Shown in pieces: positions 5,224 to 11,679 of a stretch of DNA of 30,741 nucleotides. This DNA is from a virus, in UHGV virus genome UHGV-0196597. The stretch is one strand, 5' to 3'. The notes beneath the pieces were generated by a model. That model was given only the letters and a program-made list of their open reading frames with translations, did no database searches and had not been told where the DNA came from. Each line of letters opens with the position of its first letter. Positions within the stretch are counted from its first letter, which is position 1. Both the position numbers and the translations under genes were made by a program.

Positions 5224-5365
5224 ACAGTTCCGCCTCCCTGCTCAGGGCGTAGGCTTCGGCCAGCGCCCGCGCAAGCTCGTCAAGGTCTGGCGGCTCTCCG
5301 CAGATGGTCTCGGCGGGCAGGAATGACCCGTCCGGCGTGCGTCGTGCGAATGTTCCTGTTTCCAT
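5216..5365 (-). CDS. Hypothetical protein (49 aa)
   Basis: METGTFARR..., AGGAGG RBS, TGATG coupling with the Cro-like gene. Confidence 0.6.
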   Translation of the reverse strand: METGTFARRTPDGSFLPAETICGEPPDLDELARALAEAYALSREAELYE

Positions 5366-5571
5366 CAGTCCTCCTGCTTGCTTTCGCGTTCCGCGATGAT
5401 CTCGGCCAGCGCCGCTTTTACGCGGGCTTCGGCGTTCTTTGGTGTCATTCGTCCGTTGATGATTTTTGAGAGATACCCGCGGGTCCACCCAAGGCGGGTG
5501 GCGAGTTCAGCAGTCGTGATGTGATGCGTTTTTCGCGGCCTCTCAATATCCCAGACCCAATCAGGATACAA
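5365..5571 (-). CDS. Cro-like XRE HTH regulator, first lytic gene
   Basis: ITTAELATRLGWTRGYLSKIING HTH, divergent from the repressor. TTG start at 5571 is properly spaced from the AGGAGGT RBS, whereas the track's GTG at 5580 lies inside that RBS. Confidence 0.85.
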   Translation of the reverse strand: MYPDWVWDIERPRKTHHITTAELATRLGWTRGYLSKIINGRMTPKNAEARVKAALAEIIAERESKQED

Positions 5572-5592
5572 AATGTTCACCTCCTTCTTTTG

Positions 5593-5621
5593 TTGACAAA
5601 GGTGTACATTCCTGCTATACT
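5593..5621 (+). promoter_or_regulatory. sigmaA promoter toward the repressor (lysogenic)
   Basis: TTGACA (5593-5598), 17 bp, TGc-TATACT (5616-5621). Confidence 0.85.
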
Positions 5622-5675
5622 ATAAGTGTCACCAAACAGATAGCGGCTTGTTCACCTTTGGGCTTCTATGTTTCT

Positions 5676-5704
5676 ATTATACTACCCGAAAGTGAACTTG
5701 TCAA
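5676..5704 (-). promoter_or_regulatory. Consensus sigmaA lytic promoter toward cro
   Basis: TTGACA (5704-5699), 17 bp, TATAAT (5681-5676). Confidence 0.9.
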
Positions 5705-5731
5705 GCACTTTTTACACTTTTGGGTACTTTT

Positions 5732-6292
5732 ATGTTTTACGAGAATTTTATGAAGCTCTGTGTGGAGCGGGGCGTGTCCCCGACGCAAGCGGTTGAGGCA
5801 GCGGGGATTTCGCGCCCGTCAGTTGGACGCTGGAGGGAAGGAATGATGCCGAAAGACATATCCGTCCACAAGCTGGCCTCTTATTTTGACGTCACGCCGG
5901 AGCAGCTGACGGGAGAAGCGGAGTTGCCGAAAGCTGAAGCTACTCCGGCCGGCAGCACGTTCTATGAAAGGTTGGTTTCCTTGTGTTCAGAAAAAGGCGT
6001 TGCTGTCACTCGCGCAGTGGCAGATATGGGCTTTGCAAAATCAATAACAGCCAAGTGGAGGCACGGGCAAGTGCCGCGCGGCAACTCTCTAACCAGAATT
6101 GCCGAGTACTTCGGCGTGACAGTTGACTATCTTTTGGACGGCGAAGACAAAGAAAAAGCCGCCCAGACGGGCGGCGAGGATATAAGCGCAACAAAGGCGC
6201 TGCTTCATAGGCTCATTGAGACGATGCCGGAGGACGATGCAGAGCGGGCGGCGAAAATTCTTCTTGCTGCGTTTCCAGCACACGGCGAATGA
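5732..6292 (+). CDS. CI-like repressor with two tandem XRE HTH domains and a short helical C-terminal domain
   Basis: FYENFMKLCVERGVS...LASYFDVTPEQL and FYERLVSLCSEKGVA...IAEYFGVTVDYLL are duplicated HTH domains. No S24 peptidase. Start (5720 TTG or 5732 ATG) is uncertain, with no clear SD. Confidence 0.9.
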   Translation: MFYENFMKLCVERGVSPTQAVEAAGISRPSVGRWREGMMPKDISVHKLASYFDVTPEQLTGEAELPKAEATPAGSTFYERLVSLCSEKGVAVTRAVADMGFAKSITAKWRHGQVPRGNSLTRIAEYFGVTVDYLLDGEDKEKAAQTGGEDISATKALLHRLIETMPEDDAERAAKILLAAFPAHGE

Positions 6293-6353
6293 TCTCAAGC
6301 TCGGCTGGGGTGGCGTTCTCCACGAGGGCGTGTAGCTGTTCTTTCGGGTTCAT
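6213..6353 (-). CDS. Unannotated 46-aa antisense protein, candidate antirepressor mimicking the repressor C-terminus
   Basis: AGGAGGT RBS (6365-6359) then ATG 6353: MNPKEQLHALVENATPAELEIIRRVLETQQEEFSPPALHRPPASSQ*. Extended -10 TGaTATGCT at 6394-6386. Confidence 0.72.
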   Translation of the reverse strand: MNPKEQLHALVENATPAELEIIRRVLETQQEEFSPPALHRPPASSQ

Positions 6354-6495
6354 TTTCTACCTCCTAATTTTTTTGTGGTAACTCAAGCATATCAAGAAAA
6401 TGGAAAAACACAAGACAGAAAAGAACGGATTACGACAGATAAATCGGAAATGGCACTTCCTTGACATCGGACGACCGGCGAGGAAAGGAGAAATC

Positions 6496-7020
6496 ATGGA
6501 TAAACCGAATTTGCAAGAAGAAGCCAGAATGCTGGCCGAGTATGAAGCGGCGGCGCCAGACCTTGTAATGCGGCACATCAAAAGAATTCCGCTAATCGAG
6601 TATTTTTACAAGCTTCGGCACATTCCGAAATATGAGCTTGCCTGTGAAATGCTCTGTCAAGAGGACTTGGCCGAGCTGGCCGCCATGAACGAGGCGTACA
6701 TTCAGCAGGAGGCCGAGAGGCTGACAAAATCGATTGAAAAGCTACAAGCCTTGGATTTTGACCCAGATGACCCATATGTAAAAAGGCGCTTTTCCGAGCT
6801 TGATCAGGTCTATAATCGCGGATTTTGCGCAAGAATTCCAGCCTTTGACAGATTGGGGATGATAGCGGAAAGGCGTGAAGATTTCGAGTGCGCCGCCCTG
6901 ACCTATCTTGAGGCCATCCACTGGTACAAAAAGTGGGGGATGGCTACGGAACCTTACGAGAAAAAGCTCGAAAGAGTGAAAAAAAACGCGAGGAAGAAAG
7001 CTCAACCGGAAGGGGAGTGA
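6496..7020 (+). CDS. Helical (TPR-like C-terminus) hypothetical protein in the lysogeny module
   Basis: AAAGGAG RBS before ATG 6496. PAFDRLGMIAERREDFECAALTYLEAIHWY resembles a TPR helix pair. Confidence 0.75.
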   Translation: MDKPNLQEEARMLAEYEAAAPDLVMRHIKRIPLIEYFYKLRHIPKYELACEMLCQEDLAELAAMNEAYIQQEAERLTKSIEKLQALDFDPDDPYVKRRFSELDQVYNRGFCARIPAFDRLGMIAERREDFECAALTYLEAIHWYKKWGMATEPYEKKLERVKKNARKKAQPEGE

Positions 7021-7024
7021 TTGG

Positions 7025-8632
7025 TTGACAGCACCGTTTCCGAAATACAACAATGAGGCAGCGGTTATTTATGCCAGATATTCAGACGGCCCCGACCAGA
7101 CCGAGAACAGCATAGAGGGGCAGCTGCGCGAATGTCACGAGTTCGCCGCACGCTCCGGCCTGCTGGTTGTCGGAGAATACATCGACCGCGCCATTTCCGG
7201 CCGGTCGGCGGACAGGCCGGATTTCCTCCGAATGATTGAAGATGCGCGTAAAAGTTTTTTTTCCGTCGTTATTGTGTGGAAACTCGACCGATTTGCGCGA
7301 AATCGCTTCGATAGTGCAATCTACCGGAAGAAGCTCAAGGAGTGTGGCGTGCGGCTCCTGTCCGCCCGCGAACCGATAGGGGAGGGGGCAGAAAGCATCA
7401 TTCTTGAGGGGATGCTGGAAGCCTTTGCCGAATACTATTCCGCCAATCTCGCCGAGAACGTCAAGCGCGGGCTTCGGCAGCGCGTGCTGGATGGGCACTT
7501 CGTCGGCGGCTCCCCGCCGTTCGGGTATTCCTTGCAGGACGGCGTCCTGACGCTCGACGAGGGCAAGGCAGAGGTGATGCGCTGGGCGTTCCGTGCTTAC
7601 GCAGACGGGAGGACGAAACAGGAGATCGCGGAGGCGTTCAATGCCAGAGGGTATCGAAACGCCAGAGGGCAGCCGTTCACCTGCAAGTCATTCGTCCGCA
7701 CATTCGCCAATCCGGCATACATCGGGAAGTACCGTGCGGCGGGAATGTTCCTGCCGTGCCCCGCTGTTATTGACGAGGAAACCTTTGAGCGCGTCCAGCG
7801 CCGCATCGAAAGCAATCGGCGGCGCGGTGCGCGGAACAAGGCCAAGGTTGAATACCTGCTCTCCGGCAAGCTGTTCTGCGGCCACTGCGGCAGCGCCATG
7901 ACCGGCCTGTCCGGCACGAGCAAGGGCGGGACGATTTACAATTACTACGCCTGCTTTGGCCGCCGCCGGAAGAACGGCTGCAAGAAGAAGCACGAGCGCA
8001 AGGACTTCATTGAATGGTACGTCTGCGAGCAAGCCCTATCCTACATTCTCGACCCATCCCGCCTGTCGGAGATCGCCCGCCGCGTGGTGGCGGCCTACAA
8101 TGCCGACACGGATGCAGCCAAGGCCAGAGCGCTGGAGAAGAAGATCGCCCAGCGGCAGCGGGATATCGACAGGGCCGCAGAGGCGCTGATCTTCTGCCCA
8201 GCGGGGGCGCGGGCGTCCATCTGTCAGAAGATAGAGGAACTCACGGCGCTGCGCGACGATGCTCAAGCTGATCTCAATGCCATGCATCGGGCAGCGCGGT
8301 TGAAGATCAACGAGCAGCAGGTCATTGATTGGCTGCGGAGCTTTTATGGCGGCGACCCTGCCGATGTGGGTTTTCAGAAAATCCTGATTGACAAGCTGGT
8401 TAATGCGGTCTTTCTGTGGGACGACCGGATTTTGATTTTCTACAATGTCGCCGGTGGCCGCGAGGTGTCCTACATTGACGCTTTGGCGCTCTCGCAGCAA
8501 TTCGATGAGCAGGCGAGTTTGTATTCTGACGCTTCTGCCCCGCCAGTCGTCCCCGAATTCAAGTTCCTTTCTGGTTTCCGTCTAATCGCGGTATTGAGCT
8601 TGAGAGGGGCCACAAAAAGAGGCTCGCCCTGA
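7025..8632 (+). CDS. Large serine recombinase (phage integrase)
   Basis: AVIYARYS catalytic Ser, DRAISG, VWKLDRFARN, recombinase domain, Zn ribbon (LFCGHCG...YYAC...C) and coiled coil. Confidence 0.97.
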   Translation: MTAPFPKYNNEAAVIYARYSDGPDQTENSIEGQLRECHEFAARSGLLVVGEYIDRAISGRSADRPDFLRMIEDARKSFFSVVIVWKLDRFARNRFDSAIYRKKLKECGVRLLSAREPIGEGAESIILEGMLEAFAEYYSANLAENVKRGLRQRVLDGHFVGGSPPFGYSLQDGVLTLDEGKAEVMRWAFRAYADGRTKQEIAEAFNARGYRNARGQPFTCKSFVRTFANPAYIGKYRAAGMFLPCPAVIDEETFERVQRRIESNRRRGARNKAKVEYLLSGKLFCGHCGSAMTGLSGTSKGGTIYNYYACFGRRRKNGCKKKHERKDFIEWYVCEQALSYILDPSRLSEIARRVVAAYNADTDAAKARALEKKIAQRQRDIDRAAEALIFCPAGARASICQKIEELTALRDDAQADLNAMHRAARLKINEQQVIDWLRSFYGGDPADVGFQKILIDKLVNAVFLWDDRILIFYNVAGGREVSYIDALALSQQFDEQASLYSDASAPPVVPEFKFLSGFRLIAVLSLRGATKRGSP

Positions 8633-10818: not shown

Positions 10819-11679
10819 TTATTCCACCCACTGAAAAGTGTCTGTGTAGTGCTGCTGAACAGCCGCAGCGAGATTGTAGGTCAGACCGAGCGTGCCGGTC
10901 AATGATGTTGCCCCCGCTGCTGCGTTCTCAATGTTGATGGCGTCGGTTACGAGCGATGTTGAGCCGTCGCCGCCGTAGAGAACGACGGTTCCCTTCACTG
11001 TAAGCGGCGACGAGCAAAATAGGACGGTAACGGATTGCCCGTAGAAGGACTGGAACAACTGCGGCGTCGTGCCGTCCGCGTCGGTCATGAAATACTTCCA
11101 GCCGCCGCCGTCCAGCTGGTAGGCGGCGCGGGATGCTGCTGTGTAATAACAGGCGTTGTCTGACGGAAGCGCAGCCGAGCCGCGAACTTCCAGATGGTGG
11201 AATTCGCCGTCGTTCGGGATGATGGGGCCAAAGCCTTCGGAGCTGTTGCCATCGAACCGCGTCAGAAGGGTGACGCGGTTCGATGAATTGACAGAAACCA
11301 GCCAACGCGCTGTGTCCGCTGAATTCGAAATCCATGCAAGCTCATGAGCGTCGCCGCCTGCGGCTTTCACATAACAATCTATTCCGCCCGCGAACCGGTA
11401 GGCGCTCCCGACATTGAGCGCGGAGTTGAGCTTGGTTGTGGTTGAGGCGCTGGTCGCACGCGCCTGAATGTACTTGTAATCCGCCACAAGCGAGCCGGTC
11501 AGACGGCGGGTGATGACGGTCGGGACGCTTAAAGCGTCGGAATAGACGATTTGCTTTACGTCCTTCACGGAATCGCCCGAAACCACCTTGACGTCAATGC
11601 AGTTAACGTCGCTTGTTCCAACGGCGGCCTGTCCCTTTAAAACTCCGCCGTAGGTCGTGTAGATGTTTGCCAGTTTCAT
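10819..11679 (-). CDS. Putative receptor-binding/tail fibre protein (beta-rich, possibly lectin-like)
   Basis: Last tail-module gene, S/T/G-rich beta-strand pattern. Function inferred from position. Confidence 0.55.
   Translation of the reverse strand: MKLANIYTTYGGVLKGQAAVGTSDVNCIDVKVVSGDSVKDVKQIVYSDALSVPTVITRRLTGSLVADYKYIQARATSASTTTKLNSALNVGSAYRFAGGIDCYVKAAGGDAHELAWISNSADTARWLVSVNSSNRVTLLTRFDGNSSEGFGPIIPNDGEFHHLEVRGSAALPSDNACYYTAASRAAYQLDGGGWKYFMTDADGTTPQLFQSFYGQSVTVLFCSSPLTVKGTVVLYGGDGSTSLVTDAINIENAAAGATSLTGTLGLTYNLAAAVQQHYTDTFQWVE

Follow-up and report, generated by a model that had tools for sequence, protein, structure and literature searches.

Among the described systems, the closest is the extended arbitrium AimX-AimC-AimL of the Bacillus phages phi106, phiW23, and BMBtp14, also represented, by title, in PDB entries 9iaq and 9sf2. 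According to the accessible part of a November 2025 preprint (10.1101/2025.11.23.689978), AimX proteins of 29 to 80 aa, whose genes often overlap that of the short repressor AimC, bind AimC, block its oligomerization and DNA binding, and de-repress a cro-like promoter. AimX works as a protein, its antisense RNA being dispensable, and the authors liken it to SinI (10.1101/2025.11.23.689978).

The SinI/SlrA-SinR system of Bacillus subtilis also employs a small helical protein resembling the C-terminal helices of its repressor, as far as the accessible descriptions go, and is a chromosomal biofilm switch, unlike the phage locus considered here. Within it, sinI precedes sinR in the same orientation. 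The Gifsy and Fels prophages of Salmonella reportedly carry LexA-controlled antirepressors, which are said to be separately encoded and not to be copies of the repressor tail, and small-ORF modules have reportedly been described in Vibrio by Silpe in 2023. Both have in common with our proposal that a small protein binding a noncleavable repressor induces the prophage, but they are SOS- or transcription factor-driven, and such input was not found at our locus. The Pseudomonas aeruginosa regulator BswR (4o8b) dimerizes by interleaving two V-shaped C-terminal helices and is likened to SinR in the accessible part of its description (PMC3985676), which mentions no antagonist peptide. BswR is a chromosomal regulator; it shares with the repressor studied here an XRE HTH followed by two C-terminal helices, predicted ones in our case, and a profile of the repressor-tail family described below matches its residues 69-101 (E 0.006).

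The locus examined here lies in a phage genome, UHGV-0196597, of which the whole 30,741-nucleotide stretch was analyzed (hereafter, the window). In common with AimX/AimC, as the accessible text portrays that pair, it combines a short noncleavable XRE repressor, a divergent cro-like gene, and a gene for a small helical protein that is convergent with and overlaps the 3′ end of the repressor gene; the small protein is proposed to cover the surface by which the repressor C terminus would pair. The window locus differs from extended arbitrium in lacking aimR and aimP, in its inferred Clostridial host, in its tandem-HTH repressor, and in the absence of a LexA box; no sequence relationship between the two was found. 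It also has a terminator of its own, placed within the linker of the repressor; according to the same source, some transcripts of aimX instead traverse all of aimC. Neither aimR nor aimP lies upstream of the small ORF, where a 174-aa ORF and an integrase gene are found, both on the opposite strand; no match to AimR emerged from Pfam, PHROGs, or PDB sequences, and no arbitrium genes were found in the closed 30.7-kb genome. In a fold search with the second half of the repressor, AimC and SinR/SinI rank first (1b0n_A is third, over 104 columns at E 0.022), all with E above 0.001 and driven by the HTH, and SinI Pfam models match 0 of 30 family peptides and 0 of 30 family tails at E 0.1.

The original prediction for this locus was a SinI-like peptide. 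The likeness it proposed is supported by the repressor family, but the idea is not new, AimX/AimC having been reported in November 2025 with an equal layout and the same comparison to SinI. To the extent of the accessible text, the mimic-antirepressor design is already known from the Bacillus arbitrium phages; what is added here is its spread among Clostridia without arbitrium, a terminator placed in the linker of the repressor, and the mutual exclusion with ImmA in our sample. The proposed reading also carries the AimX design outside Bacillus and arbitrium. A literature search by title and start of abstract, with most subscription papers outside its reach, found no description of this small-ORF module in Clostridia.

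Anatomy of the small ORF and its genome setting

As a genome, the window is that of a temperate, siphophage-like virus; its left part carries the early genes and those for replication, its right part the structural and lysis genes. Its two ends join in frame across the 30741/1 junction on the minus strand to give a single 336-aa ORF, so that the genome is most likely a complete circle and the absences stated here cover what is apparently the whole genome. This junction ORF includes an extended tract of 9-residue Gly-Ala-Ser-Ser-Ala-Thr-Gly repeats; elsewhere (1377-2255), the replication initiator takes the form of two adjoining ORFs, HTH_36/DnaD_N at 2255-1890 and DnaB_2 at 1883-1374. Because the named genomes holding relatives of the repressor are nearly all Clostridia, we infer a gut Clostridial host for the phage.

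Table 1. Features of the switch region and the genes around it, numbered from the first nucleotide of the window.
Feature	Position	Strand	Basis
Divergent Cro-like HTH gene, head of early lytic operon; Erf, SSB, and replication genes next	5365-5580	minus	domain searches
Switch region: face-to-face sigma-70 promoters and four asymmetric 14-bp repeats	5593-5724		promoter and repeat scans
Switch-region sigma-70 promoters	5593-5621; 5704-5676	plus; minus	promoter scan
Putative lysogeny repressor (186 aa), with a tandem pair of XRE HTH domains joined by a flexible linker to a short C-terminal domain	5732-6292	plus	domain searches
Intrinsic-terminator-like hairpin, 7 G-C pairs (6175-6158) and T run, inside repressor linker	6148-6175	minus	terminator scan; region z -3.2
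Two predicted helices at the repressor C terminus (residues 150-164 and 167-180), predicted pairing domain/target	6179-6271	plus	secondary-structure prediction
Small ORF, 46 aa/46 codons, ATG start	6353-6213	minus	ORF list and direct reading
Shine-Dalgarno (SD) AGGAGGT, 7 bases, 5 nt 5′ of small-ORF ATG	6365-6359	minus	read from sequence
Candidate small-ORF promoter: extended -10 TGaTATGCT (6394-6386), weak -35 TTGTGT (6413-6408)	6386-6413	minus	inferred from sequence
TGTCGTA, one mismatch from TGTCGAA, weak lead only	6437-6431	minus	7-mer search
Hypothetical protein, 174 aa, TPR-like features, head-to-head with small ORF	6496-7020	plus	domain/motif searches
Large serine integrase	7025-8632	plus	domain searches

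The original prediction overlooked the second HTH domain of the repressor (Table 1), but was right about the induction routes that this phage lacks: a domain search finds no S24 domain in the repressor, and none of the 203 open frames of the genome contains the HExxH motif of an ImmA-like protease. Related proteins such as P0002 and P0003 have three or four HTH domains in tandem. One further protein, P0004, has a near-identical tail, attached there to a different single HTH, and P0006 has a second HTH and linker similar to those of the window repressor but a different tail; from these sequences, repressor modules are evidently exchanged at the linker. Within the switch region, four copies of a 14-bp repeat (at 5595, 5649, 5685, and 5711, the pattern being derived from these very copies) are likely the repressor operators, and their asymmetry could suit a repressor with two HTH domains. 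Transcripts from the repressor and cro promoters, which point toward one another, would overlap by ~40 nt. No copy of the repeat lies near the small-ORF promoter, and autoregulation of the small ORF by the repressor was dropped on that ground. On the other side, the 174-aa protein has the 140-nt intergenic region in common with the small ORF; it is not AimR, contains no HExxH, has look-alike clusters in several phyla, and is possibly a regulator.

The small ORF itself is present as predicted, with its ATG, its AGGAGGT ribosome-binding site, and a tail-to-tail overlap with the repressor ORF of 80 nt (6213-6292). Eight short ORFs in the window, this one among them, combine an ATG with an SD match of at least 6 bases. 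The claim of a -10 element of its own fared less well: the sequence TGaTATGCT is there, but it matches an extended -10 at 4 of 6 positions and its -35 is weak, so that the promoter is plausible rather than strong, and it is missing from the list of a consensus promoter scan, whose sole entry in this region, a 9-of-12 site at 6395-6367, is too near the ribosome-binding site. The peptide is predicted to fold as a helix (residues 3-13), a break (14-15), and a second helix (16-32), followed by a disordered tail within the overlap. A reading of the peptide as a membrane toxin was dropped, the sequence being acidic and amphipathic.

Recurrence in a repressor family and likeness to the repressor tail

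Relatives of the peptide were found neither by word search nor by phmmer over 1.84 billion representatives (the best ESM Atlas match, at 0.81, is a lead only), and relatives of the repressor tail neither among the matches listed in scans of IMG/VR, JGI, and GTDB nor in INPHARED. Among sequencing runs, no RNA run was listed as a holder and four DNA runs yielded just short fragments, neither outcome counting as evidence. We therefore examined the wider repressor family in place of close relatives, gathering related repressor loci from IMG/VR, JGI, and GTDB in two sets. The first comprised 398 repressor-like ORFs, 373 with enough flank, in 162 clusters at 50% tail identity; 24 clusters with tails longer than 80 aa (2 of them with a small-ORF call) were set aside, and 138 were counted. 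The second comprised 76 ORFs, 74 with flank and 25 redundant with the first set, in 41 new clusters, 39 of them short. Pooled, the sample holds 177 nonredundant short-tailed XRE repressors, mostly from Clostridia. Small ORFs were called blind to the tail, as antisense frames of 25 to 70 aa with an ATG and an SD of at least 5 bases. The counts include four calls (L089, L308, L346, and L462) that seem spurious on visual inspection. At L089 (1600-1900), the repressor tail is apparently frameshifted and the antisense ORF is without a clear start, which suggests decay of both tail and ORF, or an assembly error.

An overlapping antisense small ORF with SD and ATG accompanies 35 of the 177 short-tail repressors, a fraction that is no prevalence estimate because the 19 tails behind the search profile, A5, came mostly from loci where a small ORF had already been seen. 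Thirty-one of the 35 occupy the same frame as in the window (p 2e-11), the three antisense frames being about equally open. In 31 of the 138 first-set clusters, a small ORF starts at +10 to +110 relative to the stop of the repressor, compared with 11 of 138 at +210 to +310 and 1 to 5 per interval at greater distances; the sense strand has 1 of 138. At many positive loci a divergent HTH-like gene can be recognized by eye. Among repressors with an ImmA-type neighbor, the overlapping small ORF is found in 0 of 26 (p 0.003), as expected of an alternative induction route.

A nonoverlapping version occurs in one phage clade (L015:1911-2060, L044, and 90 related loci), which we take to be Faecalibacterium-like phages by host. 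Here 70 to 200 nt separate the small ORF from the repressor, and the ORF has both a near-consensus promoter and a terminator of its own; it was called in 88 of 94 loci and has gathered 29 synonymous versus 16 nonsynonymous changes on 21 versus 75 sites. In this clade, a GAAC motif directly after the -10 is kept, and the bases after GAAC vary widely.

The likeness of peptide to repressor was originally proposed from an ungapped alignment of 23 residues with 7 identities. This is indeed the best local alignment between the two, but it is not beyond chance: the window peptide scores 30 against the whole repressor, a value reached by 479 of 5000 shuffles. It is at the level of the family that the likeness is supported, by a cognate excess and by a profile alignment. 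Across 35 pairs, peptides score 29.7 on average with their cognate tails and 23.6 with noncognate ones (0 of 20,000 permutations), and the excess is likewise seen in the 23 pairs unseen before A5 was built (3 of 20,000) and in 6 out-of-sample pairs from the second set (86 of 20,000). Composition does not account for it (0.17 +/- 0.75 in the control versus 5.0 observed), and it survives without the overlapping part. Alignment of peptide and tail profiles with hhalign, for which 30 peptides and 30 tails were curated by hand (omitting three weak and four out-of-frame calls and adding two with an SD of 4), gives a probability of 92 and E 5e-7 in exactly the register first proposed. Helix-break-helix is predicted for both peptide and tail, and the breaks coincide in the alignment (peptide 14-15, repressor 165-166). 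There is no cognate excess at the DNA level (4584 of 10,000), and an origin by recent inverted duplication of the tail DNA was dropped for that reason.

For the window pair taken singly, the peptide ranks its own tail 5th of 35, and the repressor tail reaches no more than 2.0 bits on the profile of the peptide family, a profile that separates peptide-bearing from other non-ImmA tails weakly (p 0.06). The peptides resemble noncognate tails and generic helical hairpins too, and part of the likeness is that of any amphipathic hairpin.

We are nearly certain that the small ORF of the window is a real gene. That it should be a chance or decayed open frame accords with the lack of any peptide homologue in the searches above and with a pairwise match to the repressor that is not significant, but is extremely unlikely given its 7-base SD, its use of the family frame, its terminator, and its geometry (start at +61, end at -80), which falls in the middle of the family range. 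A family profile from which the window peptide was left out gives that peptide 11.6 bits, a score reached by 0 of 300 shuffles.

The linker terminator and candidate inputs

A further element, overlooked in the original prediction, is the minus-strand terminator-like hairpin inside the repressor linker, 38 nt past the small-ORF stop. Such an antisense linker terminator is present at 24 of 29 small-ORF loci versus 31 of 134 others, and on the sense strand at 0 of 29; loci that had been found using terminator-like patterns are excluded from these counts. The element is not exclusive to the cassette, as it also occurs at 9 of 22 ImmA-type loci without a small ORF (e.g., L084, L175, and L193), where perhaps it protects the repressor against read-through on the antisense strand. 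Terminator DNA accounts for the Lys-Lys-Pro-Ala...Gly sequence that recurs in the linkers of the family's repressors. Gene callers miss the small ORF, but simple rules—antisense, in one frame, with a stop just 5′ of the linker terminator—find such genes.

What would activate the small ORF is a separate matter. The Clostridial LexA box, GAAC-N4-GTTY, was taken from lexA promoters (three of four lexA-type loci). In agreement with the original prediction, the small-ORF promoter has none, its best site having 2 mismatches; RAACN4GTTY occurs in the window only at 10980 and 24926, with 1.86 expected by chance. Elsewhere in the family, exact LexA boxes are found at 2 of 26 small-ORF promoters in the first set and 2 of 6 in the second, and a looser pattern finds a LexA-type box at 6 of 35, as expected of induction genes. 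At L243, L327, L415, and L418, SOS boxes sit on or beside the -10. Many family small ORFs have near-consensus sigma-70 promoters.

Another candidate is Spo0A, whose 0A box is TGTCGAA (PMC12991052). This heptamer was noticed after the fact among the top 7-mers, in 5 of 26 promoters versus 0.4 expected; out of sample it recurred in only 1 of 6 versus 0.07 expected. Among the 35 family peptides, 6 have an exact box upstream. The window has a one-mismatch version (Table 1), of a kind common by chance in 160 nt (~0.4 by our own estimate), and its two exact TGTCGAA boxes both lie away from the small-ORF promoter. At this locus, these motif searches point to no definite input for the proposed induction switch. 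One could envisage a widespread, self-contained, arbitrium-free mimic-antirepressor cassette of gut Clostridia prophages, antisense to the repressor and terminated within the repressor linker, with exchangeable inputs—LexA in a minority, possibly Spo0A in others including the window phage—although we regard so broad a scheme as distinctly unlikely. Were the Spo0A input true, prophage induction would be tied to host dormancy, not DNA damage.

Proposed mechanism and alternatives

We propose that the 46-aa peptide is probably a mimic antirepressor that acts on the two-helix pairing tail of the repressor. By likeness to BswR, SinR, and AimC, the tail would dimerize the repressor; residues 1-32 of the peptide would pair with it, the resulting heterodimer replacing the second subunit. 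A repressor capped in this way would leave its operators at 5595-5724, and the Cro/early operon would then fire without repressor cleavage. The peptide would be turned on by a regulator of host or phage origin, not by way of a canonical LexA box at this locus. Such a peptide is a candidate induction trigger for repressors without autocleavage or ImmA. Expression of the cognate peptide would directly wake these prophages, and the promoter of the small ORF would serve as a readout of the natural signal.

The peptide may bind the tail and still be no signal-driven switch, serving instead as a constant low-level buffer or as a bias of the lysis-lysogeny choice at infection. The lack of a LexA box here and in 29 of the 35 family promoters would fit this role, as would the near-consensus sigma-70 promoters of many family members, the absence of a repressor operator near the small ORF, and the action of AimX at infection too, described in the accessible part of the preprint (10.1101/2025.11.23.689978). 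We nonetheless consider it unlikely, if the most serious of the alternatives, in view of the SOS boxes at the -10 in a minority of loci and of the replacement of ImmA/S24 induction routes by the small-ORF unit in our sample. A different agent altogether would be the antisense RNA, which, by convergent transcription or by cleavage of the duplex over 6150-6292, could lower the mRNA of the repressor (and of the downstream integrase) or remove its tail-coding part, the ORF being incidental. From promoter to terminator the unit is wholly antisense to the repressor-ORF174-integrase direction, and the terminator is its most conserved element. That same terminator, however, limits the antisense overlap to ~140 nt, which argues against a broad antisense mechanism, and would hold the transcript off the HTH-coding part, so that antisense RNA is probably secondary. 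A protein is needed, moreover, to explain a pair-specific likeness that exists in protein and not in DNA, the use of one frame, the synonymous excess, and the nonoverlapping versions; in the Bacillus phages, by the accessible account, start-to-stop alleles are inactive and recoded alleles active (10.1101/2025.11.23.689978). The antisense part of the original suggestion is the weaker one, and RNA as the acting agent is very unlikely.

It is equally improbable, in our estimation, that the peptide serves as a trans-acting antirepressor or co-repressor for the repressor of another resident element, or that it stabilizes the oligomer. Trans-acting antirepressors do exist, tails are exchanged between HTH domains at the linker, as in P0004 and P0006, and 4 other tails among the 35 score equal or better with the window peptide. 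Against these points, and in favor of a mimic antirepressor directed at its own neighbor, a peptide without a DNA-binding domain on the pairing surface would be expected to be dominant-negative, as are SinI and AimX, and the family-wide cognate excess points to the neighboring repressor as the partner.
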